Part shown: piece by piece, positions 2,155-15,731 of the stretch | Layout of the letters: every line of letters begins with the position of its first letter | Numbering within the stretch: the first letter of the stretch is position 1 | From: a virus | UHGV virus genome: UHGV-1472620 | Length of the DNA stretch: 39,677 nucleotides | Strand: one strand, 5' to 3' | Program-made: the position numbers and the translations under genes | Notes under the pieces: generated by a model | Seen by the model: the letters and a program-made list of their open reading frames with translations, nothing else | Databases searched by the model: none | Told to the model about the DNA's origin: nothing

Positions 2155-4911
2155 TTAGCTACTTTCAAGCATTGCAAGACGTGATTCTATTTTTTCGATT
2201 CTTCTACGCAAATAAGCTGACTCAAGCCATAAACACTGGTCAGTACGGATACCCCACCTATTTCCAGCCTTGCAAACCAGAGTTCGCTCTTCTGTTTCGT
2301 ATTCTTCTTCCATCTCAATTTCGACGCCATCCACAACTTTAGTGATCATCCTTACCGCCATCACTGGCGCGTATTTATCATCCCATTCATCGTAACAGAG
2401 AAGGCCAAATCTGGTTCCATCAATCCCATGCGCGAGGAAAGTGTCTCTCACTTGTTGTGCTATAACACCAAAATGCCAGCGGGCACCATCTCCCTTTTCC
2501 CTGACGGCATCAAGCCAGCGAAAAGCTACAATCCTGATATCTCCCCATGCATCCAGAATTGCATCACCTTCATAACCACGAGACATATACAAGCTGAGCT
2601 CACTTGTACTAATCGGTTCACTTTTTTCTCTACCATCTGATGTGTTTATCGAACCGTTCGCAGAATAAACCTGTGCCCATCTAAATGATGGTGCACCAAG
2701 AGATTTGCTGTTATCAATAATTGGTGAAAAATTACCTTTAATGGCAATATTTCCAGAGTCGCCGAATACATTAATAACTGCAGAGTCATCACCATGGTTT
2801 TTTACGCTTAAGTTTCTTGATGAAATATTTATATCTTTGTTATATCCACTAACATTAATCCATCTTTTACCATCAGTGTGATACCCGTAAATATTTCCGT
2901 CTGATTGTTCGTCAGGTGACTCTCTAAGAACAATAGCATCTGCTCCAGACGACCATTGTATTTTTGTATCTGTAGGCCTCCAGTTCTTTATAATGAACGA
3001 ACCATCAGTAAACTCCGTTTTTATTTGTCTATTGTCTACAAATGCGTCTCTTGGTTTAAACTCACTTGTGTTAACGCTGCTCTGAAGATCAGAAGCAAAA
3101 AATCTAAGATTTCCTGTATAACCCTGAGTCTCGGTCAGGTTATACGCAATCATAATTCCATTTTCAAACTCAGATGATGTTATTTTAACATCACGGCAAT
3201 CACCAAAAATGCAATTTCCTTTATCAAAGGTTGTTTGAGCTTTGAATTTATCAAACCTTAAATTACGAACAGGGAAACCATCAACCTCTAATGCAAAGGA
3301 TGCAGGAAGGCCAAAGTATTCTGATGGCTTACCTGATGTATGATCAAGAGTAGTGGCTACTGTATTCTCAAAAACAGTCCCGCTAAAATTATTACCAATT
3401 GACGGAAACCTGATTACACTTATTGTACCTTGTATTTCAGGAGAAATACCAGATAGTGTGATGTTAGTTCCATCAAATGATGCATCTGAATACGTATATA
3501 CTGATTCACTGCCAGCAATTTTAAACTGTTTAACTGAAGTTATTCTCATCGACTTTTTATGTTTAAATGTCACTGAGCTTTCAGTATTACTTACAAGATC
3601 AATCTGAGGGCTATTCCTTATCGCGATCCCTGACTGGACATAAACGTTATTAAAGTGCGTTTTTTCAGGATTTCCCTTCATTGAAAGGCTCCCGTCATTT
3701 TCTGTCAGTAGTAGTCCTTTTACCCTCCAATAGCCGACAATCTGTACGTTATCAATAACTGAATCACAGCTATCGTATACATGCAACCCTATATCCCAGT
3801 CATCACCCAATGAATAAGAATCAGGGTTATTGTATCCTTCAATACCATTTTTACTTACCATTATTCTCAGGTTGCGTAACTGTGATGCCCTGTTGATACT
3901 AACAGCTACGCTCATGGCTTTTGGTGTAGCAGGAGTAACACCTACAGAATCTTCATTTGTAAACTCAGTGAACTTACAAGATATCCCTTCAACAATTTTA
4001 ACTGGTCTTTCATTAGAGATGTTAAAAAAATATTTGTTTTTTTCTCCATCACCAGTAAATACAAGATGGGTTCCTTTACTCCAACTTTTTAATAATCTTT
4101 CAGGCGCTGGTCTATATGTATCCCAATAATCAATGCCATCACCAATTAATGACACTCCAGGAGGCACATCTATGTTCTTAGAAATCATCCATTTACCTGC
4201 AGGTATTCTAACGACACTTGCACCAGAATTTATCGCATTAATTAACCATTCAGACGCATCAACTTCAAAATTTAATGCAGCATATCTTTGCTCAAACGGA
4301 ACAAAATCAAGAGCGTTAACGTTATCCCGCATCTTATCCTGGAACGTTCGGTATACTGCTCCAGAACCATACTGAATAAACCAACCAAAACCACCAACAA
4401 CTCCGGCGATTGCAGCATCAACATAATTGCGCATTGATCGATTATTTACAGCATCCTGCTCAAATGATGGATCTGCAAGGTTAGAAATTTTGTTTTGCTT
4501 TGCATCGTAATATTTTGCAAGCAAAGATGGTTTCATCAATGCACGTCTGAACCACCCAAAACATTGCTGGATCAGCATCGTCAGGTAGTCAAAGGCATCT
4601 TCATGCACTTCGGGGAAAAATTTTCCCTGATTGCGAAGGTCTGTCTCCTGCACTACATCAAGCACACGATCTATCGTAATTCGCCATCCAGTAGCAAGCG
4701 GAGACGGAAGAACCACAGAACCGCCACTATAAGTGCCCGCCCCAGTTACCGTATAACCGGTATCCAGAACCAATTCTGTTACGTTTCCGTTCAGATCAGA
4801 CACCTGAACAACCAGGTCTGATTTTCTGAAAATTCGAAAAGTATACGGAAACGATGTCGTAACGCCGTTACCGGTGTATTCGTTGTGGTCAACTTCGGTT
4901 GAGACCGTCAT
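2155..4911 (-). CDS. Tailspike / tail fibre with C-terminal intramolecular chaperone (peptidase S74-like) domain
   Basis: 918 aa; C-terminal SDGREKSEPI ... HFGVIAQQV pattern typical of self-cleaving chaperone domains; AT-rich central region. Confidence 0.8.
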   Translation of the reverse strand: MTVSTEVDHNEYTGNGVTTSFPYTFRIFRKSDLVVQVSDLNGNVTELVLDTGYTVTGAGTYSGGSVVLPSPLATGWRITIDRVLDVVQETDLRNQGKFFPEVHEDAFDYLTMLIQQCFGWFRRALMKPSLLAKYYDAKQNKISNLADPSFEQDAVNNRSMRNYVDAAIAGVVGGFGWFIQYGSGAVYRTFQDKMRDNVNALDFVPFEQRYAALNFEVDASEWLINAINSGASVVRIPAGKWMISKNIDVPPGVSLIGDGIDYWDTYRPAPERLLKSWSKGTHLVFTGDGEKNKYFFNISNERPVKIVEGISCKFTEFTNEDSVGVTPATPKAMSVAVSINRASQLRNLRIMVSKNGIEGYNNPDSYSLGDDWDIGLHVYDSCDSVIDNVQIVGYWRVKGLLLTENDGSLSMKGNPEKTHFNNVYVQSGIAIRNSPQIDLVSNTESSVTFKHKKSMRITSVKQFKIAGSESVYTYSDASFDGTNITLSGISPEIQGTISVIRFPSIGNNFSGTVFENTVATTLDHTSGKPSEYFGLPASFALEVDGFPVRNLRFDKFKAQTTFDKGNCIFGDCRDVKITSSEFENGIMIAYNLTETQGYTGNLRFFASDLQSSVNTSEFKPRDAFVDNRQIKTEFTDGSFIIKNWRPTDTKIQWSSGADAIVLRESPDEQSDGNIYGYHTDGKRWINVSGYNKDINISSRNLSVKNHGDDSAVINVFGDSGNIAIKGNFSPIIDNSKSLGAPSFRWAQVYSANGSINTSDGREKSEPISTSELSLYMSRGYEGDAILDAWGDIRIVAFRWLDAVREKGDGARWHFGVIAQQVRDTFLAHGIDGTRFGLLCYDEWDDKYAPVMAVRMITKVVDGVEIEMEEEYETEERTLVCKAGNRWGIRTDQCLWLESAYLRRRIEKIESRLAMLESS

Positions 4912-5015
4912 GTTAAATCTCCAGATAGTCGCAGCACCCGTTGCGCCGCATATCTGGTTATTCTATTACCTGGAAAACCACATATGGATAGAAAGGCTGT
5001 AAATACGAATAGATA

Positions 5016-5030
5016 TTACCTTTCAGGTAA
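5016..5030. promoter_or_regulatory. Operator-like palindrome TTACC-N5-GGTAA
   Basis: TTACCTTTCAGGTAA, about 75 bp upstream of ATG 5107. Confidence 0.55.
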
Positions 5031-5106
5031 TTTGCAAAACGTGCTGGATAGCAAACAAATTATTTGCTACTGTATAAATATACAGTTATTGCATGGAGAA
5101 GATAAG

Positions 5107-5364
5107 ATGCAGCGGTATCACTATCCACTGGAAGACGGATTTACCGAAAGGATTCACACGCCGGGAGGCGTCAGGTCACTGGTGGAGGGATCGCACTTGA
5201 TGAAATTACTCCGGGATCTCGATAAGGATGGATTTAATGTCGATGGCCCACTTGCCGAACTGACTGCACTGATTAACTACGTCACCAGCTCACAGATGTC
5301 TATGCAGGATCTGCAAACACATCTCGACTATTGTGCCGAACAATTACGAAAACAAACCACATAA
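5107..5364 (+). CDS. Stand-alone paralog of the antirepressor C-terminal domain
   Basis: RIHTPGGVRSLVEGSHLMKLLRDLDKDGFNVDGPLAELTALINY...DLQTHLDY aligns with C-terminus of Bro-N protein 6819-7511; start chosen downstream of the operator. Confidence 0.5.
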   Translation: MQRYHYPLEDGFTERIHTPGGVRSLVEGSHLMKLLRDLDKDGFNVDGPLAELTALINYVTSSQMSMQDLQTHLDYCAEQLRKQTT

Positions 5365-5387: not shown

Positions 5388-5894
5388 TTAACAGTCGTAA
5401 AATTCTGGGTCCCACAAACTTGCATCGCGCGGCATGGATTCTAACTTTTTCAGCCGCAAAATTCTGTCACACTCGACAACTAATTTTTGCTTCTGCTCGT
5501 CAATTTCTACTGTCTTATGCGCTGGTTCATCCCAATAATCCAGAAGGAAGGCATGGCGTTCAGATGTGACCAGATAAATCACATACACGTCACTGGTTGG
5601 GATCTTTTTATGCTTGTTAGTGGTCTTGTCTTTCTTCCCAGACGCCCAGTTTTTCCAGCATTGTTCCGTACCGCTCTCACCAAACTTGTCAGTATAGTTT
5701 CCGATGTTTAAGTGAACGTGGCGTATGTGATATTCCAGCATCTCTTTCGGTGGATCTCGAAACAGAGTGTCCTTTCCGAAATCCTTATGATGACCGTAGC
5801 GCCAGTGATCTATGAACGCGTTTTTGATAGGTATTAGCTCAGGGTCCTTCCCAAAAATTCCAGGGTGAACCAACCCCTGGAATTTATTCGGCAT
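5388..5894 (-). CDS. Toxin-like protein A, paralog of 7954-8466 (possible YafO-like family)
   Basis: Shares HWRxGHH, GKDTLF, VHxNIG, CTEQCW and YWDxPAH motifs with protein B; ATG overlaps upstream partner stop by 11 nt. Confidence 0.6.
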   Translation of the reverse strand: MPNKFQGLVHPGIFGKDPELIPIKNAFIDHWRYGHHKDFGKDTLFRDPPKEMLEYHIRHVHLNIGNYTDKFGESGTEQCWKNWASGKKDKTTNKHKKIPTSDVYVIYLVTSERHAFLLDYWDEPAHKTVEIDEQKQKLVVECDRILRLKKLESMPRDASLWDPEFYDC

Positions 5895-6399
5895 CGTCGT
5901 AGAGCTCCTGAGCCATGTCTTCAGCAGTGCGTGCAAACATCCTTCGAGAAATTGCATGCGATTTTTCAACAGACATCTTTGGTACTTCTCGCATTACAAC
6001 CTCATGTGACGCTGTAGGCTTAAAAGATGACTTATAATACCGCTTTATCATCTCAACTAATTGCTGCTTATCCTTGGAGCGTCCAGTTTCGATTAGCCTT
6101 GACTCGTAAGGTCGCATTATATTCGTTTGACATGAGGCACGATGAAGCTTATCTGCCAAGATTCCTTCAAAAGATGTGCCCCGGATTTTTAACAATGCCT
6201 CATGCTGGTCGTATTCAGTGATGAACATAACCGGGTATTTTTGCTCAACTTCTTCATCATGAATCCTGATGGCATTGGCAGTTGCTATGGCAGCAGCATA
6301 AGCGGCTGCTTCAATCACCATCTTTTTCTCTTTTTCTTTTTCAGACTTTTTCAAGGTCAAGCGTCTATGCCTCATCGCTGCAACTCTCTTCGTGTTCAT
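5884..6399 (-). CDS. Upstream partner of protein A (antitoxin-like), basic N-terminus and acidic C-terminus
   Basis: Overlaps A start; ends ELYDDAE; track ORF starts at TTG 6411, ATG at 6399 preferred. Confidence 0.5.
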   Translation of the reverse strand: MNTKRVAAMRHRRLTLKKSEKEKEKKMVIEAAAYAAAIATANAIRIHDEEVEQKYPVMFITEYDQHEALLKIRGTSFEGILADKLHRASCQTNIMRPYESRLIETGRSKDKQQLVEMIKRYYKSSFKPTASHEVVMREVPKMSVEKSHAISRRMFARTAEDMAQELYDDAE

Positions 6400-6551: not shown

Positions 6552-6818
6552 ATTTACATCGCACTCCTCTTGTGCCATAGTAATCGGGCACTGGCAAAAT
6601 CCAGTGCCGGGATTGGTCTCCCGGATTACTACAGAGGCACATATGCCGCATAAGCGGTTTTTTTATGTGTAAAGCGCACCTATTCTATGGTGGGCTGTGT
6701 GGGGGCACCGAAAGGTGCGCCGGGTTCCTTTGTAGCCGGTAAGACCAACTCTGCACAGTTCACCACCATCTGATTGGTCTCAGCGGTGGTGATTAACCTA
6801 ACTACAAAGGTGATCGCC

Positions 6819-7511
6819 ATGAATACCAAACCTTCCATCTTTTCCTTTGAGTCATCCTGCCAGATCCGTATGTTCATGATTGACGGAGAACCTTGGTTTG
6901 TCACCAAAGATGTGTGCAATGCTTTGAATATTGATGTTACACAAGCGAGAAAACTTGATAAAAAAGGCTGGAACAAAAAGGGGCTGTATTCAATACAGAC
7001 CCCTGGTGGAATACAAGAACTATCCATCGTTTCAGAATCAGGTCTCTACATCCTTATTCTGCGTTGCAAAGAGGCAATGACTGAGGGAACGAGAGCATTC
7101 AGATTTCTTGAATGGGTTACAGGTGAGGTTCTTCCTCAGATCCGCCGCACCGGAAGTTACATTAAAAACTCGCTCCCGCAGGAAGAACGCATAAAGATGG
7201 TTGCCGACCAGGTAGCCAACGCCACGGCGTCAGCAGTGATGCAGGCAATGAAGATAGAGAACAAAACCTACAGTGCCCCGCTGAAGCCCGGCTACCGCAG
7301 TCTGATTCATTCTCCGTCTGGTGTTCTCGGCCTGACGGAGAACTCACTGCTGATGAATCTGCTGAACCAGTTGCAGGACGACGGGCATGATGTATCGGGC
7401 GCGGCGGCGGAACTGACCACCATGTTCTGCTACATTGTCGGTGTGAGCAAATGCCTGCGTGATATCCAGACGCACGCGGAGTACATCAACGACAAGGCAG
7501 GGTTCTTCTGA
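6819..7511 (+). CDS. Antirepressor with N-terminal Bro-N domain
   Basis: N-terminal FESSCQIRMFMIDGEPWFVTKDVCNALNI ... SESGLYILILRCKE resembles Bro-N/Ant; AAGGTGA Shine-Dalgarno before ATG 6819. Confidence 0.75.
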   Translation: MNTKPSIFSFESSCQIRMFMIDGEPWFVTKDVCNALNIDVTQARKLDKKGWNKKGLYSIQTPGGIQELSIVSESGLYILILRCKEAMTEGTRAFRFLEWVTGEVLPQIRRTGSYIKNSLPQEERIKMVADQVANATASAVMQAMKIENKTYSAPLKPGYRSLIHSPSGVLGLTENSLLMNLLNQLQDDGHDVSGAAAELTTMFCYIVGVSKCLRDIQTHAEYINDKAGFF

Positions 7512-7640: not shown

Positions 7641-7967
7641 ATGACAAAACTTGGATTCGTGATGAGAGGTCCGGTAAGAAGCGGAACTCATGCAAAGCGT
7701 AGCAAGAGTCGTATTTTTACTGGTAAGGTTGTAGCACGTAAATCAGCTATTGGCTCGTTCAATAGTGAAAATGCGGCATTGCGCCATATTTTTATCAGCA
7801 CAAAGCCAAGAGCATCCGCTGATGTGCATACAATGTCTATTCCTATCACAAAGAATATAAAGCGGATAAAAAAGCTCTCATCTGCAGAATCAAAAGAGAT
7901 ATCTTTCCGCCAGCTTAACTCATTAGAAACGCATATGAAGGAAGAGGAATTCGATGTTTTTGAGTGA
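7641..7967 (+). CDS. Upstream partner of protein B (antitoxin-like), basic N-terminus and acidic C-terminus
   Basis: 108 aa, ends KEEEFDVFE; stop overlaps B start by 14 nt; GGAG Shine-Dalgarno before ATG. Confidence 0.5.
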   Translation: MTKLGFVMRGPVRSGTHAKRSKSRIFTGKVVARKSAIGSFNSENAALRHIFISTKPRASADVHTMSIPITKNIKRIKKLSSAESKEISFRQLNSLETHMKEEEFDVFE

Positions 7968-8466
7968 GTATAGCGGGAAGGTTATACCTACTGGTGAGTT
8001 TAAAACTGATGACTTTCTGATTTCGCTAAAAGATGCTTTTAAACAACACTGGCGTCATGGTCATCATCCTGATCTGGGAAAAGATACTCTTTTTGAAAGA
8101 CCAGAGGAAGTATTAGGCTTCCATCTCAGAAAGGTTCATGTCAATATTGGTGAATATGCATCATATTCATACTCATGTACTGAACAGTGTTGGGATGAGT
8201 GGTCATATGGATTGATTGATGAACAAGGAAATTACAGGCCAAAACCAACCAGTAACGCATATCTCATATATGCAGTCAATGAAATAAGAGATGCAGCCTT
8301 ACTAGCTTATTGGGACCCGCCCGCACACACCAAAGCTAACGCAAAAGTTTGGATGGATTCCGTATTGAATTTCACAAAATTATTTCATGAACGAACGAAT
8401 ACAGCTCCACTTAGTAGAAATGTTTATCCGTGGGATTATTCGTACAAATCCAAAAAGCCTGCATAG
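7954..8466 (+). CDS. Toxin-like protein B, paralog of 5388-5894 (possible YafO-like family)
   Basis: Motifs shared with A (see above); strong GAAGGAAGAGGA Shine-Dalgarno; AT-rich coding region. Confidence 0.6.
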   Translation: MFLSEYSGKVIPTGEFKTDDFLISLKDAFKQHWRHGHHPDLGKDTLFERPEEVLGFHLRKVHVNIGEYASYSYSCTEQCWDEWSYGLIDEQGNYRPKPTSNAYLIYAVNEIRDAALLAYWDPPAHTKANAKVWMDSVLNFTKLFHERTNTAPLSRNVYPWDYSYKSKKPA

Positions 8467-8547
8467 TAGTTTTTTATGGACGAAACAAAAGTCAGTGCTA
8501 CACTCATTGACGCCACATTGAGGTGGTTTATAGATGGAAATTTCACA

Positions 8548-8709
8548 ATGAAAAAAGCATTTGCTGCACTGTTCGTTTTGTTGTCTCTGGTAGCTTCAAC
8601 TCAGGCCTTTGCCGGTCGTTGTCAGCACGACAGCGATACTGCCGCTGACGGCTCCCGCTGCGGTGGGCGTTCTGCGGATTCCCGCCCGGGCGGCGGTGGC
8701 ATTCGTTAA
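8548..8709 (+). CDS. Small secreted peptide (signal peptide plus about 30-aa Cys/Gly-rich mature part)
   Basis: MKKAFAALFVLLSLVASTQAFA signal-like N-terminus; track ORF begins at 8476 but signal peptide favours 8548; weak Shine-Dalgarno. Confidence 0.35.
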   Translation: MKKAFAALFVLLSLVASTQAFAGRCQHDSDTAADGSRCGGRSADSRPGGGGIR

Positions 8710-8715
8710 AAACAA

Positions 8716-8737
8716 GGCCGCGAAAGCGGCCTGTTTG
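8716..8737. terminator. Hairpin GGCCGCGAAAGCGGCC plus T-tract
   Basis: Same hairpin as 5371-5386, followed by TGTTTG; sits between convergent stops 8709 and 8739. Confidence 0.6.
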
Positions 8738-8738
8738 A

Positions 8739-9590
8739 TCACTGTGCAGTTTTCGCTGATCGATTTTCAGCTCTAAATTCAAGAACCGTTTCAATATTTC
8801 TTTCCTTCAGCATATCAATAACATTTTTATTCATTTGACTATCACTGGTTAATAACTGGTAAACGTTGCTTCTCTCTTTATCAGAGTTTTCTTTAACAGC
8901 TGCTTTGCATGCCAAATGCTTATTGAAATTTTCTACATCGCTAGTACAGGAATTTACGGCTGCTGATGAAATATCAGACGCTGAAGAAACACCATCATCC
9001 AAACGTTTTATAGCATTTTCTATACATGAGTTAAGGGAATAAACGACAACTGAGCGATACCCTTCAGACGCACACCATTCTAAATTTCTTGAAGGATCGA
9101 GTGGTTTTACTTCGCTGGATTGAATTAACTTGTCAAAAACTGACTTATATTCAATCTGTTTTTTATCTATAGCCCATACTTCAGTAGCTGATTTATAATT
9201 CCCCGTATGCCTATTAACATCAAATCCATGCTTTATAAGCAAATCTGCCCATGAAAGATTTATTGATTCATTGTTATGAGGCCATTTTCCTGTCAGAACC
9301 GCCCCCATAGACCCCATATATCCGCCATATGATGGTATAGCACCATGGCTCAGTAACTTCTCAGCAACCACAGGGCAATTAATTACATAAGAGGCGTAAA
9401 GCCCATTCCATAAAGCCCCTCTATAGTAATCGCCACGATTAGGTTCTTTTAAGTCGATAGCCTTTGATAATTGTTCACACGTTTTGCATGCATCAAAGTT
9501 ATCCTTATTGCATTGCAATGAACTGGCAGCTGTAGGATTTACAGAGACTATTGAAAGCACTATGCCAAAAAACAAATTTATTTTTTTCAT
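8739..9590 (-). CDS. Secreted or periplasmic protein of unknown function
   Basis: N-terminal signal peptide MKKINLFFGIVLSIVSVNPTAASS; AT-rich; start abuts stop of 1129-aa virion protein (TAGGATG). Confidence 0.6.
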   Translation of the reverse strand: MKKINLFFGIVLSIVSVNPTAASSLQCNKDNFDACKTCEQLSKAIDLKEPNRGDYYRGALWNGLYASYVINCPVVAEKLLSHGAIPSYGGYMGSMGAVLTGKWPHNNESINLSWADLLIKHGFDVNRHTGNYKSATEVWAIDKKQIEYKSVFDKLIQSSEVKPLDPSRNLEWCASEGYRSVVVYSLNSCIENAIKRLDDGVSSASDISSAAVNSCTSDVENFNKHLACKAAVKENSDKERSNVYQLLTSDSQMNKNVIDMLKERNIETVLEFRAENRSAKTAQ

Positions 9591-9591
9591 C

Positions 9592-12500
9592 CTATTTCAT
9601 CTGCTCTTCAACTTTATTTAGTAATGGTGATATCGCCCACAGATTCTGAAAAGGTAGCATTTTACGGACAGCGTGGGTTTGCTGGCTGTCAAATTCTCCG
9701 TTAAGTACACCATTTGCAACCGTCGCGGCATCACCGCCAAGATCAAAGGTAGGACCAAGTAAAGCACCAATAGCATTACGACTCTGAAACCTTGATACCG
9801 GAGGCGCACCAAACATCGCGCCAAGACCAAACCTACCGCCGCTTATGTTCTCAACGGTATTCAGCGGCTCAGAGAGCCAGCCAAGCATTCCGCCCCGGTC
9901 GATCCCCTCTTTCACAAGGTTATTCCAGCTGTAGTCGATATCGCGACCGCTTAACTTCTGTTTCATCATATAGACCATTGAGCCAAGCGCAATCGTGCCA
10001 AGCGCACCAAGATAGAATGCAGCATCGCCCTGCTGGATACCAGATACCAGCACCCTGTTATGCTGTGCGAAGATAAACGTTTTGAACTGCGTGATCATCT
10101 TCCAGCCTTCTTTACTAAAAAACAGCGGTGTATCACCTACGCCAGGCGTTACAATCACTGAGTCTACATCTTTCAGCACTGCAGACTGGAAAATCTCTCT
10201 AGCGAAACGGTCATCCCACAGATGACTATGCCCGGTTAACAGCCCGTCCATATCCTCTCCGTGCTTCCCGAATTGCTCCCCGATTCGGCGCAGAACATCT
10301 TCATTGATGCCGACCTGTGCCATCTTCCGCATTTCACTTTTGGAGAGCGTGCCACCAGCAGAAACTTGGCGAGCCGCGTCAAGTATCCTCGACTGCACTA
10401 TCATCCCGGACCATGATTTAAGTGCGCTGTTCCACTGATTCATCAGCGTCCAGTTACCGAATTTCTGCGTCATCCAGTTCAGACCTCGCTCAGCGGCGCT
10501 TCTCCGGCTATAGGGGTCAGTAAGATCCGCTATAGCCTTTGTACGCGTAGACAGGACATAATCAAGCCCAACGGCCATTTCTCGCAAATCCCTGGTTGCA
10601 ATTTTCACTGAGTCCATATTTTTAAGCATGCTTACCATTGGTCCGAGAGATTTTCTCAGGCCATGCTGCATCATCGGTCGCATCAGATCAGTTGCAGCGG
10701 AGACAGTCATTCCACCAAGCAAACGGAGGAAGTTAATATTCCTAGCAACTCGCCCGGCACGAACAAAGAAACTGCGTGGATCTTGAGGTGCGCCGTAAGT
10801 ACCAAGCAGTCGATCACGCATAGCCGTAATATCCCTAATATCAGCCTCCCGTTGCTTCTCAAGAGCTGCACGTCGTTTAGGTGTTTTAGCCTCTTTTATT
10901 AGCCGGGTATATTCCTCACTAACCTGACGGATTTGCTCCCCCATATCTTTACGGCCAAACTGCGCAGTCAGCTCAATTTCTGGCGCCACCTGCCGGAGAT
11001 AACTTTCCATGATGTAGTTAACATCTGATTCAAGAAAATCTTCTATACGCTCATCAGGAATAAGCAGCGTTCGGCTTTTAGTGAAACCAGCCCGACCAAC
11101 GAGTCTCTCTGGGATAATATCGGCTGGTACAAGCCCGGAAGGTGCGCCTATTATTTTATTCACGATCTCGTCAGCAGCGTCCTCTGCTTCCTCTCGGGAT
11201 AGAGGCTCCATCTGCTTCAGTGCTCGTTCGCGGCTTGCATTCAGCCTTGTGGTTGAATTTGCCCGTTTTTGCAGTCGGCGAAGCTCAGAACGATATTTCC
11301 GTGGATTATCCAGCAACTCCATATGGCGCTGATAGACAGGAAGCTCACTCTTTGCCTGCGCTATATCATCAAGGCGTGTTTTAAGGTCAGAGCTTTCTTT
11401 CATCATTCTTGCCTGAAGTTTTTCTGATGAAGTCTCGGCCAACTCTTTTTCTATTCTTGTAAGACGCGCCTGTGTGTCAGTCTCCTGAGATATAAGCTTA
11501 TTTCGTTTATCCAGTTCTTCCATGAGTAGAATTTTTTTACCAGACCATTTCTCCGCTTCAGCGATTTCACTAGCGAGAGCATCAGCGCGCGGTGCTGATT
11601 CCTCTGCAGTTTTTAGCAATGAATTTATCCTTTCAATTCGCTGACCTGCTTTGTCAGCACCTTTGGCACTAATCCCTTGTATCCAGTTGGCAATTCGCCC
11701 TCTGAATTCAGTGCGGTCGGAAAGTATCTTATCGAACTTATAAATGCGGGGAAGATAACTTTTCGCCGTCACGACATCGATATCCTCAGGAAGGATCCCC
11801 AGTTCCTGCATACGGGCTTTTGTGGTCTCGAAAATGGGGCGGATTCTGGCGGCTGCTTGTGAAACCTCAGGAATATCACTCTGATCACCACGGCGCATAG
11901 CCATGCCAACAGCTTCATTGAAATCAATAAAGTTCATCCTCTTCACGCCGCGGTCGCTAACAGATTTGCTGTACTGCTGGTAAGCATCACGAGTAGCTTC
12001 CATCTGCTTATAAAGCATGGCGTCGTATTGCTTAATCTTAGTCTCGACTGCCGTAAACGTAGCCAACCCCTCATCATTTTTGGCGAAGAAATAGTTATTT
12101 TCGGCAAGCTGCTGGTTAATCTGACGGGAAACAAGAGATGGTGATTGCGCCAAGCGGCCAGCAGGAGTGACACTCAACGTTTTGTTAGCAAGTCCAAGTC
12201 CAGCGAGCTGTTCCTGATCGAGTGTGGTATTGAAAACCTGAGCTGCACCAATGCTTTGAGGAGAATCCATACCTCGCAAATGATTACCTACTGAGTTAAC
12301 CACTGCCTCGCGCGCGCTAGGTCCAGCAAGTAGCTGTGCACCAGCACCAAGGATCCCACCAACGAGAGCATCAACAACAACGTTCGATACGCTCTCCATC
12401 GGTGAGCGAGCTTCCTGAGTGGCCTGCAATGCGGCCTCTGAAGCAACACTGCCAGCAGCATTGGCTAAAGCAAAACGTCCGGCTGTTTCTGCAATACGAC

Positions 12501-12981
12501 CGCCACGAACGACAGCGCCGAACGGAATAAACATAGAAATCGCATTGAATGGATCTGCTAATCTCATTGCTACAGAAGAGACTGTACCAGCAAATCCCAA
12601 GCCTGAATTGTATTCCATGTCAGCTCTCTGCTGATCGATTCGATGTTTAATTGCCATTGTTTCTTCAGGCGAACCGGAGTTGATAAACGAATCTGCAAAA
12701 TCTTCATAGCCTTTAATATCTGCTGCATCGTTATCAAATGGGTTATATCCTTCAACCCTGTCAAACTGACTGAAAGGAGCACTGGCAATAAAGCTACCCA
12801 GCGTGTTATCTATACGAAATGCTGCTTGTCTAGACCTTTGAACGCGTTGATCACTGGTAAATGGGTTCACAGCAGAAAGCAAAGAAGGTGTTTCCATATA
12901 GAAATTACTGTCATCAGGTGCTGCTATTTGCTGAATATCCTCGCCAAGCAACTCTTTAGGATCCTGTTCATATATCGGCAT
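9592..12981 (-). CDS. Very large internal virion / ejection protein
   Basis: 1129 aa with long charged coiled-coil centre and Gly/Ala-rich N-terminus; position in late operon. Confidence 0.7.
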   Translation of the reverse strand: MPIYEQDPKELLGEDIQQIAAPDDSNFYMETPSLLSAVNPFTSDQRVQRSRQAAFRIDNTLGSFIASAPFSQFDRVEGYNPFDNDAADIKGYEDFADSFINSGSPEETMAIKHRIDQQRADMEYNSGLGFAGTVSSVAMRLADPFNAISMFIPFGAVVRGGRIAETAGRFALANAAGSVASEAALQATQEARSPMESVSNVVVDALVGGILGAGAQLLAGPSAREAVVNSVGNHLRGMDSPQSIGAAQVFNTTLDQEQLAGLGLANKTLSVTPAGRLAQSPSLVSRQINQQLAENNYFFAKNDEGLATFTAVETKIKQYDAMLYKQMEATRDAYQQYSKSVSDRGVKRMNFIDFNEAVGMAMRRGDQSDIPEVSQAAARIRPIFETTKARMQELGILPEDIDVVTAKSYLPRIYKFDKILSDRTEFRGRIANWIQGISAKGADKAGQRIERINSLLKTAEESAPRADALASEIAEAEKWSGKKILLMEELDKRNKLISQETDTQARLTRIEKELAETSSEKLQARMMKESSDLKTRLDDIAQAKSELPVYQRHMELLDNPRKYRSELRRLQKRANSTTRLNASRERALKQMEPLSREEAEDAADEIVNKIIGAPSGLVPADIIPERLVGRAGFTKSRTLLIPDERIEDFLESDVNYIMESYLRQVAPEIELTAQFGRKDMGEQIRQVSEEYTRLIKEAKTPKRRAALEKQREADIRDITAMRDRLLGTYGAPQDPRSFFVRAGRVARNINFLRLLGGMTVSAATDLMRPMMQHGLRKSLGPMVSMLKNMDSVKIATRDLREMAVGLDYVLSTRTKAIADLTDPYSRRSAAERGLNWMTQKFGNWTLMNQWNSALKSWSGMIVQSRILDAARQVSAGGTLSKSEMRKMAQVGINEDVLRRIGEQFGKHGEDMDGLLTGHSHLWDDRFAREIFQSAVLKDVDSVIVTPGVGDTPLFFSKEGWKMITQFKTFIFAQHNRVLVSGIQQGDAAFYLGALGTIALGSMVYMMKQKLSGRDIDYSWNNLVKEGIDRGGMLGWLSEPLNTVENISGGRFGLGAMFGAPPVSRFQSRNAIGALLGPTFDLGGDAATVANGVLNGEFDSQQTHAVRKMLPFQNLWAISPLLNKVEEQMK

Positions 12982-15731
12982 TATTTGCCCCCTGCGTATA
13001 TATTGCTCGGAAGGTAATTGGCTGAACCATAACCGAATGGTTTGGTCAGATCTGGAGGAGTATATCCATCTTTATTGCTGAACTGCGGCAGCGGATTGCC
13101 TTCTCTCCGCACTCTAGCCTCATCAACACGCTGTTGCTGGAACTGAATGGTTTGCCTGTACATTGGAGATGTCAGCTGATCCGGCTTGAAACGAACAGGG
13201 AGACCATTTTCTCCAATATAATTTCTCGGTTCTATCGCTCCGTTTGCGTCAGGCTGTAAAACCATAACAGCATAACTCCTATCCCTTGCCGTAAGGCCAT
13301 CAGAAACAAGTATTAAGTCCGTATCACTGCGAGGACCGCCAAAGGATTTTGATTTAAGCTCGCGTTTTTCCTGCTCCCACTGCCCCTGTATCCAGTTACC
13401 AGCACCATTATTTACTCCGTACAATGCCTCAGGTGCATACTTCATAACCTCTGCTTTGCCATTAACCGTAGAAACTCCCCAGGTGGTTCTGATCATGGCA
13501 TTGGTCATTTTCTCAGCCTGTTCTGCATCGCCACCTGTCTGTACAAAGTTAGCATCGTAAATTGTCTGGTAATCTCGCTGATAGGCCGCATTTGATTTTC
13601 CTGGATCGGTAATATCCGGAGACCACGAACCAAAGGAAGTCAGACTGCTGGCGTTATTTTGTGCAGCAGTTGCCCTCGCCGCGACATATTTTTTGTCTCG
13701 CATGGCAGTGGAAAGCATCTGTTTCATTCGGTCATCCTGTTGGAAAACCTGGCTGTAAGCCATATCAACAGCCTTATCCTCCGGCATGCCAGCGCGGGAA
13801 TAATCGTAAACCTTGCCGTAAAATGCCATCGTACTTTTATCAAGTGTTGCCGCTGCCGCCGGATTATTATCGAATAACTGACCGTAGAATTTTGCCATCG
13901 GGACAACCAGCGCAGGATCTCTTGATGTTGCTCCACTGTTAAGCATTGTTTTAACCTGAGTTGGTATCATGCCGCTTTTAGTTGTGACGGTGACCAGTGT
14001 ATTGATGCTCTGCGGATCAGATATGGAAAACGAAGGCGCGATATCCTGCGCGAAATAACGGTCTACCGCTGCCTGATTGTTTTTGTCGTTCGGGTCCAGC
14101 GGGAAGTTATTTTGCATTGAAGACACGAACCTGTTTCTTCCCTGCTGAATCTCCCACTCCCTATCCATCTCTTTAAATTTGGCCTGCATTTTCTCCCAGC
14201 GTTGCTGGTTAGCTGCAAATCCAGGAGTGTTTGGATCCTGTGGACGTAAACGTTCAAGAATGTCTTGTCGTCCTTCTGGAGTGAGGTCTTTAGCGGCACC
14301 AATGACACCTCCATATTGTATCTGCGCCTGCATATCCTTCCACTTCATAGCGCCAATGCGCGGACCATTGGCCCGGATAAAATCGTCCTCAGAAGGTAAC
14401 TTCTCAGGTTTCAATCCTTCATCAAGGGCTGAATATGCATCTTTAACTACGGTGCTAAGCTGGTCCGCATACTGCTGGCGGTACTGATTTCTCAGCTCAT
14501 TAGCCTGCCTCAATGCCTGTATTTGCATTTGAGGGCTCATAGCGTCAAATGCCGCATTGCCCGTATAACGCTTAGGTGAATCAAGGTTAGTTAGACCAAG
14601 GGCTGCCGAGATACCAGTTTCAAGCTGTTCGGTGCTATAAGGCATACTGCCATTTTCGTGTTTAATAATCCCAGCACATAAAGCAGCTAGTGTCTTTGGG
14701 TTAGAGATATCAAGCTGATCATTCTCCCCAACACCAAGCTCACTACACAATGCCCTAATATAAGCATCAGTATTATTACCATCACTAGCCGGAGCATAGC
14801 GATTAACAATCTCGCTAACGGTGTCATAGCCTTGACGCTGGTAAGACAACATATTTTTACCCAACGCGCGGATTCCATGCTCAGGGGTAGCAAACGTTGC
14901 AAAACGTCCATCGCTACCGATCTGACCTTCCCACGGGTTAGATTTGCTCGCTTCAATATTACCAGGGTTATTATTACGTAAACCACGAGCATCCAATGAA
15001 TTACCATGTGATATTGCACGACTCACACCATCAAGATCCCCTGGCTCTCCATTAACCTGAAGAAACTCGTTGTATTTTTGAGCGATATTTCCTATCCATG
15101 CTTGCTGCCCCATTTGTTCCTTGAGCTGAGTTTTCTGCTGAACACGCCACTCATCAGGAAGCCCATGCGCATCAGCGTATTGATCAATAGATTCAAATCG
15201 CTGCTTGGCTAAATCGACAAATGCTTGGTTATCGCTATATAGCCCCGCAGACTGAGTGACAGCCAATGCATTTCCTGACAAATACGTTTGATCTTGGAAT
15301 TGCTGAAACTGCCCAACTTCATATCGACGTGCCTGATTGTAATAAGACTGCATAGACTGCTGGAGTTGAAAGGATAATTTATTCCTTTCCTCACTTTCAG
15401 GAATTGAGCCTAATAATGCCTGAGCCCTTTCCTGCATATTTTTCATAACAGCGTCACTCTGACCAAGAGCGTTTTTACCCTGTTTAGAAATCAGCCCATT
15501 TTCAGGGTTGTTAATCTGGTCATCTGCAAATTGGTTAAATTGCAGTAACGCCTCCTGGGCCATAGCAACATTCGCTTTCTGCCTGGCTTCACCATATGCC
15601 ACCGCATACTGATCTGCGACATTCGCCAGCACCTGACCTGCTTGAGGAACATCGAAGGTCTGAAAACCACCGGTTTGCACACCACGACTTTGCACCTGGC
15701 GTCCGGATGTAGTAGGAACAACAGGCATCAA
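12981..15731 (-). CDS. Large internal virion protein
   Basis: 916 aa, Gln-rich, follows small hydrophobic core proteins in late operon; function inferred from size and position only. Confidence 0.65.
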   Translation of the reverse strand: MMPVVPTTSGRQVQSRGVQTGGFQTFDVPQAGQVLANVADQYAVAYGEARQKANVAMAQEALLQFNQFADDQINNPENGLISKQGKNALGQSDAVMKNMQERAQALLGSIPESEERNKLSFQLQQSMQSYYNQARRYEVGQFQQFQDQTYLSGNALAVTQSAGLYSDNQAFVDLAKQRFESIDQYADAHGLPDEWRVQQKTQLKEQMGQQAWIGNIAQKYNEFLQVNGEPGDLDGVSRAISHGNSLDARGLRNNNPGNIEASKSNPWEGQIGSDGRFATFATPEHGIRALGKNMLSYQRQGYDTVSEIVNRYAPASDGNNTDAYIRALCSELGVGENDQLDISNPKTLAALCAGIIKHENGSMPYSTEQLETGISAALGLTNLDSPKRYTGNAAFDAMSPQMQIQALRQANELRNQYRQQYADQLSTVVKDAYSALDEGLKPEKLPSEDDFIRANGPRIGAMKWKDMQAQIQYGGVIGAAKDLTPEGRQDILERLRPQDPNTPGFAANQQRWEKMQAKFKEMDREWEIQQGRNRFVSSMQNNFPLDPNDKNNQAAVDRYFAQDIAPSFSISDPQSINTLVTVTTKSGMIPTQVKTMLNSGATSRDPALVVPMAKFYGQLFDNNPAAAATLDKSTMAFYGKVYDYSRAGMPEDKAVDMAYSQVFQQDDRMKQMLSTAMRDKKYVAARATAAQNNASSLTSFGSWSPDITDPGKSNAAYQRDYQTIYDANFVQTGGDAEQAEKMTNAMIRTTWGVSTVNGKAEVMKYAPEALYGVNNGAGNWIQGQWEQEKRELKSKSFGGPRSDTDLILVSDGLTARDRSYAVMVLQPDANGAIEPRNYIGENGLPVRFKPDQLTSPMYRQTIQFQQQRVDEARVRREGNPLPQFSNKDGYTPPDLTKPFGYGSANYLPSNIYAGGK

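Follow-up and report, generated by a model that had tools for sequence, protein, structure and literature searches.

What does an exported protein do at the end of an operon that builds a virion? The question is raised by a gene in UHGV virus genome UHGV-1472620, which belongs to an epsilon15/phiV10-like temperate podophage and was analyzed as a single stretch of 39,677 nucleotides (the window). The gene (8739..9590, minus strand) encodes an exported two-domain protein of 283 amino acids (aa) that falls in PHROG 6118 and has no Pfam family. It comes last in an operon in which genes for proteins of 823, 154, 188, 916 and 1129 aa precede it. Judged from sequence and gene neighborhood, the 283-aa protein may well be a periplasmic immunity protein, or inhibitor, of the Enc34-type muralytic domain, giving superinfection exclusion or resistance to lysis from without. 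This is the reading we prefer, and we hold it tentatively.

The start of the gene is unambiguous because its stop-to-stop frame opens just two codons 5' of the ATG, and the open reading frame (ORF) has one possible ATG. On the coding strand the junction with the preceding gene reads ...ATG AAA TAG G ATG AAA AAA..., the ATG (9590) following the TAG (9592-9594) of the 1129-aa gene by 1 nt, just as the original prediction had it. The upstream product (9592..12981, minus strand) had been called an ejection protein, and it indeed matches phrog_342 (internal virion/ejection protein) as well as phrog_16310, under the PHROG label 'internal virion protein with endolysin domain'. On the other side, 6 nt past the stop of the 283-aa gene, lies an intrinsic terminator made of a GC-rich hairpin and a T-run (8715..8732, minus strand). 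It is common to the 283-aa gene and a convergent 77-aa gene, and the homologous sequence in phiV10 carries an annotated terminator. A consensus scan of 8400-10400 found no sigma-70-like promoter sites where 3.6 were expected, a type of scan that cannot exclude a promoter inside the 1129-aa gene. Given the 1-nt junction, the terminator that follows and the lack of a sigma-70-like site, the gene seems to close the late operon and to be translated by coupling to the gene before it. Its composition sets it apart from the rest. The GC content is 0.369, compared with 0.481 for the 1129-aa gene and 0.479 for the window, and that of third codon positions (GC3) is 0.285 against 0.436 in the 1129-aa gene. 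The AT-richness first noticed (37% versus 48% GC) recurs in every lineage compared, where the gene lies 8-16 GC points under its neighbor.

Is the protein really exported? Rule-based analysis finds a Sec-type signal peptide from residue 1 to about 22-24 (MKKINLFFGIVLSIVSVNPTAA, followed by S; 9519..9590, minus strand). It has the n-region MKK (+2), the 10-residue h-region LFFGIVLSIV with a mean Kyte-Doolittle value of 2.9, and small-x-small cleavage sites at residues 22-24, after TAA or AAS and in either case before S. The same check finds no lipobox and no second hydrophobic or transmembrane (TM) segment; a lipoprotein-type exclusion factor is ruled out by the missing lipobox. In the predicted structure residues 1-24 have a pLDDT (predicted local distance difference test) below 50. 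An equivalent leader, divergent in sequence, is present in every homologue, so the signal peptide of the original prediction is upheld throughout the family. The several cysteines mentioned there prove to be eight in the mature protein, all invariant across 15 homologues down to 39% identity. With a tripartite leader, a signal peptidase I site, neither lipobox nor further TM segment, and eight invariant Cys, the protein is probably periplasmic and would be held by up to four disulfides.

These features bear on a role in the virion or ejectosome, in which the hydrophobic N-terminus would serve as a membrane-insertion segment during ejection. The gene does lie inside the structural/ejection operon with conserved synteny. 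Yet the leader is of the cleavable type with small-x-small sites, the eight conserved Cys imply an oxidizing compartment, close relatives of the phage have no such gene or an unrelated replacement, and stand-alone relatives of the protein exist outside phages. A virion role is scarcely credible in the face of this.

Family searches with the whole protein give little. It has no match in Pfam even at E ≤ 10, none in NCBIfam and none among the anti-phage defense models of PADLOC, and phrog_6118, in which it is placed, has the function label 'unknown'. An exhaustive profile search of 1.8 billion representatives divides it into two modules. The N-terminal one (aa about 25-165; 9096..9518, minus strand) is an ankyrin-repeat domain with four invariant cysteines, C27, C35, C38 and C72. 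It is also found alone, in proteins of 160-175 aa that all have leaders and the same four Cys. The C-terminal module (aa 166-283; 8742..9095, minus strand) is all-helical, with a pLDDT above 90 in the predicted structure. It contains the motif RLDDGVSSASDIS, in the family (R/K)LDDG(V/I)S(P/S)ASDI, which sits between conserved Cys, and its own four invariant cysteines are C173, C189, C215 and C228. This module too is found alone, in signal-peptide proteins of 110-160 aa, and has no match in Pfam, NCBIfam, PDB sequences, PDB folds or a viral fold library.

The assignment of the N-terminal domain rests on several lines of evidence. Structure prediction gives stacked helix-turn-helix repeats of ~33 residues, the ankyrin solenoid fold, with about 3-4 degenerate, disulfide-braced repeats. 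The family profile matches a bona fide multi-repeat ankyrin protein (P0061) at E 2e-9 over 7 stretches, hhalign aligns aa 59-130 with two ankyrin repeats (70.6% probability, E 3.9e-5), and the best PDB sequence matches of the domain are ankyrins (E 0.008-0.017). The segments KLLSHGAIP and DLLIKHGFDVN, which had been noticed as faintly ankyrin-like, are the ends of two of the ankyrin-like repeats. The Pfam ankyrin models (Ank, Ank_2 to Ank_5) are unmatched at the gathering threshold by the 283-aa protein, and by its stand-alone relatives likewise. By fold the protein is thus a divergent ankyrin-repeat protein outside any named family, and we are confident that it is an exported ankyrin-repeat protein and not a capsid component. 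Neither domain matches the models for known lysozyme inhibitors (Ivy, PliC/MliC, PliG, LprI/DUF1311) in Pfam or NCBIfam.

What might such a protein bind? A candidate is encoded two genes upstream in the same operon. The 916-aa ejection protein (12981..15731, minus strand; phrog_1044 'endolysin', E=0) has a muralytic domain of the Enc34 (PHA02564) type at aa about 248-381 (14589..14990, minus strand), identified by PDB matches and a hidden Markov model (HMM) scan. The domain is ~135 aa long, running from RNNNPGNIE to IIKHENGS, and matches PDB 7q47 at E 9e-17 and 9vvp_L, the N-terminus of the 1295-aa 'Gp29' chain, at E 6e-36. PDB 7q47 shows the catalytic domain of an endolysin, that of Hafnia phage Enc34. 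This domain is the founding member of PHA02564, a family for which muralytic activity has been demonstrated and which has its catalytic Glu at the equivalent HENG position (PMC8943055). We ruled out an identification of 7q47 as the Pseudomonas lysin Pae87, which is 7q4s/7q4t and belongs to the Pfam family Muramidase (PF11860). Wherever a lineage has the 283-aa gene, the domain HMM also detects the Enc34-type domain in its ~916-aa protein. Within the window the 916-aa copy is the sole Enc34-type domain, since the endolysin is GH19-like. Of the two functions first suggested as examples, superinfection exclusion is the one that gene neighborhood would favor, now with this domain as candidate target; envelope modification has found nothing in its support.

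The strongest indication that the enzyme is the partner comes from outside phages. Stand-alone relatives of the N-terminal domain are 31-42% identical to it over the whole ankyrin domain, and in four independent environmental, non-phage loci the ankyrin gene forms a tight two-gene operon with a stand-alone Enc34-type gene. In a Bacteriovoracia metagenome-assembled genome (MAG; L042) a 219-aa Enc34-type gene comes first and the ankyrin gene follows with an ATGA overlap. The ankyrin gene comes first in the other three, which are L082, L091 (an 8-nt gap with a Shine-Dalgarno sequence) and L136/L137 (overlapping genes). A fifth locus, L041, is a tail gene cluster in which a tape-measure protein ends in an Enc34-type domain; the ankyrin gene is found 3.2 kb downstream of it. 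All of the ankyrin partners have leaders, and none of the paired Enc34-type enzymes does. The two genes are adjacent and co-oriented in L042, L082, L091 and L136/L137, and in the window the hydrolase domain is encoded two genes upstream in the same operon. Judging by its signal peptide and conserved Cys, the 283-aa protein would also reach the compartment in which the enzyme is active. An exported ankyrin protein, a leaderless and externally delivered hydrolase, and the co-inheritance of the two make up an effector-immunity pattern.

The paired Enc34-type enzymes themselves end in His-rich tails, such as HHHHHPVHHHHPTHHH, HRHHRH and HRHVRHH (L091 8483-9030, L082 8390-9046, L136 4263-4802), which could have an export, metal-binding or regulatory role.

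How old is the association in phages? The nearest record is Escherichia phage EC.W1-9, the sole carrier of the 283-aa gene among 50,697 phage records; a literature search by accession turned up no mention of the protein, and EC.W1-9 appears in a single article, which deals with combining phages and antibiotics. Of the 5426 complete Escherichia coli genomes, 106 have the gene in the chromosome, including IHE3034, APEC O18 and ST95 strains, and 120 have the 3' end of the 1129-aa gene at ≥95% identity (119 at ≥99%). Homologues of the 283-aa protein are 84-89% identical in Klebsiella, about 60% in Serratia and about 40% in Morganella and Providencia. The comparison covered 36 loci from viral contigs and genomes of Escherichia, Klebsiella, Serratia, Morganella and other genera, and in each of them the gene comes immediately after that of the ~1130-aa ejection protein, on the same strand. 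By lineage the identities of the 283-, 1129- and 916-aa proteins run 100/100/100, 86/92/83, 61/79/57, 41/55/44 and 39/41/37%. Because synteny is strict and divergence is in step with that of the ejection proteins, the gene is not a recent insert, rather an old passenger of the ejection module that can be lost or swapped. The original prediction had implied a loose AT-rich add-on. Co-divergence with the ejection genes across genera speaks against looseness, and what holds is that the gene can be swapped, as in a Klebsiella phage.

The strains just named, and the fact that ankyrin repeats are typical of eukaryote-directed effectors, bring up a virulence factor, freed from lysogens of extraintestinal and avian pathogenic E. 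coli (ExPEC/APEC) and acting on eukaryotic cells. A Sec leader alone reaches only the periplasm, though, and the same gene stands in the same position in Serratia, Morganella and environmental phages. As the relatives in soil and marine bacteria are paired with cell-wall enzymes, and the literature is silent on the protein, we think a virulence role very improbable.

Several observations weigh against inhibition of an Enc34-type domain. Of the about 11 stand-alone loci that are informative, no more than about 5 have an Enc34-type neighbor. There is none in L085, L063, L135, L078 or L084, nor beside the MORN-fused forms; L078 has an array of small immunity-like genes, and a weak GH24-like gene lies near that of L084. 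A distant alphaproteobacterial subfamily, reached by searching relatives of P0056, adjoins a cytochrome c and a NOX-like reductase instead. Further, the identity matrices of the ankyrin and Enc34-type domains are correlated overall (r 0.84, Mantel p 4e-4), but this mirror-tree correlation is not significant among the stand-alone pairs alone, the overall signal being driven by shared phage ancestry. The taxonomic spread of the stand-alone forms is poorly sampled, the genome-contig profile search having yielded two MAG loci.

Two of these groups have features of their own. The MORN-fused forms, from marine contigs (L086, L087, L089, L090) that also bear integrase-like genes, have the ankyrin-like domain behind a signal peptide and MORN repeats in proteins of 458-479 aa. 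In the alphaproteobacterial subfamily (gene 6001-6495 in L127-L132, from Alphaproteobacteria MAGs and marine contigs) the ankyrin-like gene is always just downstream of a small cytochrome c gene, and divergent from a gene for a 683-aa EF-hand/ferric-reductase (NOX-like) protein. The constancy of this set of three genes points to a function in the redox chemistry of the periplasm that has nothing to do with phages, and the scaffold therefore binds different partners in different lineages.

The 283-aa protein could accordingly be a periplasmic binder of some other target. It might mask a receptor in the host outer membrane, exclude phages by a different route through an envelope protein, or bind the 1129-aa protein or some other component of the ejectosome, and the Enc34-type link would be incidental to phage ancestry. 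Ankyrin scaffolds have many partners, cytochrome c and a NOX-like reductase being the neighbors in the distant subfamily; about half of the stand-alone loci have no Enc34-type neighbor; the gene is coupled to that of the 1129-aa protein and not to that of the 916-aa protein; and the C-terminal domain is distributed independently in prophages. The four independent non-phage operons of an ankyrin and an Enc34-type gene are hard to explain unless the enzyme is the partner, and we find a different target doubtful.

Among the phages and prophages, about 14 of the 120 E. coli genomes with this ejection gene are without the 283-aa gene, which has been lost or replaced. In Klebsiella phage ST512-KPC3phi13.3, whose ejection protein is 93% identical, the slot is taken by an unrelated leaderless 204-aa cytoplasmic protein (L038 4380-4994; phrog_3383, function unknown), and the close relative TL-2011b has nothing in the slot on that strand. 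In phiV10 the same slot holds a 46-aa protein with two TM segments, followed by the same terminator sequence. The slot behind the last ejection gene behaves as an exchangeable cargo site. Close relatives free of the gene are expected of an accessory exclusion function, and are equally compatible with any other dispensable role.

Two more points against inhibition concern timing and specificity. Expression looks to be late only, which would be unusual timing for exclusion: Spackle of phage T4 is an early gene, and prophage superinfection exclusion (Sie) genes are expressed in lysogens. Such expression would be a better fit to resistance to lysis from without than to classical prophage exclusion. 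As to specificity, prophages of the Morganella/Providencia type have the same enzyme class twice in addition to the ankyrin protein. Their endolysin is an Enc34-type protein of 158 aa (L003 12247-12723; L037 15190-15666) that is without the C-terminal TM domain of Enc34 and has 42% identity with the muralytic domain of the ejection protein in the same prophage. Unspecific inhibition would hinder lysis by these prophages, and their inhibitor would have to discriminate between the two enzymes or be sub-stoichiometric.

These endolysins also bear on whether the phage might be protecting its own cell, its muralytic proteins being kept harmless in the periplasm until holin-triggered lysis, as by an effector-immunity pair acting inside a single cell. 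The 283-aa protein would be co-expressed from the same late operon by translational coupling, and the Enc34 endolysin, to which those of the Morganella-type relatives are related in type, is membrane-tethered and toxic on expression (PMC8943055). The 916-aa protein, however, lacks an export signal and its packaging takes place in the cytoplasm, so it should not meet the wall before lysis. Moreover, the endolysins of the window phage (GH19-like) and of the Serratia relative (GH24) are unrelated enzymes, and late inhibition of a lysis enzyme would cost burst timing. Self-protection, or a function in lysis timing, is thus quite unlikely.

Could the protein instead serve lysogens against weapons other than phages? 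The gene has traits of a moron in that a terminator is present, its GC content is 11 points lower and it is replaced or absent in close relatives; what counts against this status is that it has no promoter-like site and has diverged together with the neighboring structural genes across genera. Lysogenic conversion could confer immunity to Enc34-type effectors of competitors, for example Tae5-like ones of type VI secretion systems (T6SS). An Enc34-like effector domain occurs in the T6SS pair Tae5/Tai5a of Stenotrophomonas rhizophila, next to an immunity protein of ~18.5 kDa that has a signal peptide and whose gene comes first (PMC13340143). Gene order and sizes are alike in the modules of L091, L082 and L136, as compared by description, and chromosomal modules of enzyme and ankyrin protein resemble effector-immunity pairs; low GC and a terminator of its own give the 283-aa gene a moron-like look. 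Against this, no promoter for lysogenic expression was found, and the 'effector' in the window is part of an ejection protein. The gene lists read for the stand-alone loci showed no genes of T6SS or other secretion systems, though no screen was aimed at these. Linkage to and co-divergence with the muralytic ejection protein point to the phage enzyme as the cognate partner, so that immunity to competitors' weapons is unlikely.

Returning to inhibition of the domain delivered by the phage itself, there are known systems with which to compare it. T5 Llp, phi80/N15 Cor, P22 SieA and HK97 gp15 are accessory phage envelope proteins that block the entry of related phages. These are either lipoproteins or proteins of the inner membrane, made early or by the prophage, whereas the 283-aa protein has no lipobox, no TM segment and no promoter of its own that was detected. 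By analogy the nearest functional systems would be Spackle and Bd3460. T4 Spackle (gp61.3), a small helical protein with disulfide bonds, inhibits the gp5 tail lysozyme in the periplasm, and leads to superinfection exclusion and resistance to lysis from without (PMC7677548). It too is encoded by a phage and has a signal peptide, which is cleaved in Spackle, and disulfides, and in both cases the target, here a proposed one, would be a muralytic domain delivered by the phage's own virion. There is no detectable relation of sequence or fold between the two, and the proposed binding module here is an ankyrin domain fused to a second domain, with an Enc34-type rather than a T4-lysozyme-like target. 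Spackle is also an early gene of a lytic phage, whereas the 283-aa gene is the last of a late operon in a temperate podophage.

Bd3460 of Bdellovibrio bacteriovorus is a signal-peptide ankyrin protein encoded beside a peptidoglycan hydrolase gene, and sterically blocks the enzyme in the periplasm (PMC4686830). It is likewise an exported ankyrin protein of similar size with the hydrolase gene adjacent, and the relative and adjacent enzyme of L042 come from a Bacteriovoracia MAG. It has six canonical repeats found by the standard ankyrin models, in contrast to the about 3-4 repeats of the 283-aa protein that all Pfam ankyrin models miss. Bd3460 inhibits DD-endopeptidases while the target proposed here is a glycosidase-type domain, the two being likened by description. 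If the mechanism that we suggest holds, and it is close to an open call for us, periplasmic inhibition of a delivered wall enzyme would be something already known, and an inhibitor for the Enc34/PHA02564 class would be the first proposed.

The mechanism might run as follows. The 283-aa protein would be made last from the late ejection operon, its translation coupled to the 1129-aa gene, and be exported through Sec to the periplasm with two binding-type modules, the ankyrin domain of 3-4 repeats and the helical 'LDDGxSPASDIA' domain. An incoming virion of the same type would deliver the peptidoglycan-cleaving Enc34-type domain of its 916-aa protein into this compartment. There the ankyrin domain would bind and sterically block it, preventing local cleavage of the wall. 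An infected cell, and perhaps a lysogen as well, would then withstand attempts by more virions of this kind to penetrate or damage its wall. The result would be exclusion of superinfecting phages or, with many progeny adsorbing, resistance to lysis from without.

The C-terminal domain would perhaps provide a second target or anchoring. Three stand-alone relatives of it were placed in context. In L124 (1614-2843) a 153-aa exported relative lies 63 nt downstream of a gene for a CI-like repressor (HTH_3 and Peptidase_S24) on the same strand. A position beside the repressor is the classical place for prophage-expressed or exclusion genes and would fit an exclusion role. In L123 the relative belongs to the accessory region of a prophage, with an integrase and a GH108 endolysin nearby, and in L126 it is beside large unannotated genes.

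More tentatively still, PHROG 6118 could be the founding phage member of an undescribed pairing of Enc34-type enzymes with disulfide-braced periplasmic ankyrin inhibitors that spans phages and free-living bacteria. The pairing would extend over enterobacterial temperate podophages, the tape-measure protein of a tailed prophage, relatives in predatory bacteria, and soil and marine bacteria. The phage protein would then be a bipartite exclusion protein, in which the inhibitor is fused to the exported LDDGxSPASDIA prophage module and aimed at the incoming ejection machinery.

Some neighboring genes have features worth recording. The convergent 77-aa ORF (8476-8709, plus strand) has a signal-peptide-like leader (MKKAFAALFVLLSLVASTQAFA) and a Gly/Arg-rich tail, and its PHROG matches are phrog_3117 and phrog_14503, labeled 'membrane associated protein' in the moron category. 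Phages without the 283-aa gene, for example TL-2011b and phiv142-3, have this ORF too, at 98-99% nucleotide identity. ORFs 5388-5969 (minus strand, 193 aa) and 7954-8466 (plus strand, 170 aa) are paralogous, with the common motif HWR(Y/H)GHH.D.GKDTLF...P.E.L..H.R.VH.NIG.Y and no PADLOC match. In the same accessory region of IHE3034 a neighboring gene is annotated as a YafO-family type II toxin, and the two ORFs may be toxin copies in an accessory region between the tailspike and ejection genes. ORFs 4984-5364 and 6774-7511 (both plus strand) have a similar C-terminal segment, L..L...G.(N/D)V.G...EL(T/A)..(I/F).Y(V/I), which looks like a partial duplication in this region; the longer corresponds to a BRO-N/antirepressor-type gene annotated in relatives. 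In the 918-aa tailspike gene (2155-4911, minus strand) the central and C-terminal part (window 2600-4400) has a GC content of 0.35-0.40, AT-rich like the 283-aa gene. The part for the N-terminal, head-binding region stays close to the average of the genome, and such a split is what one would expect if the receptor-binding module is exchanged horizontally.

What would the proposed inhibition mean for these phages and their hosts? To our knowledge there is essentially one known case of a periplasmic inhibitor of a virion-borne wall enzyme, T4 Spackle. If our reading is correct, the 283-aa protein would be a second, unrelated and ankyrin-based solution, and blocking the incoming muralytic domain would be a recurrent strategy of exclusion. 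The Enc34/PHA02564 class, which is under development as an enzybiotic, would then have its first natural inhibitor. A function would be assigned to PHROG 6118 and to the LDDGxSPASDIA proteins, neither of which now has one. The gene is widely distributed among the prophages of pathogenic E. coli and occurs also in Klebsiella, Serratia and Morganella, and its product could account for host-range failure of therapeutic phages of this type on lysogens.

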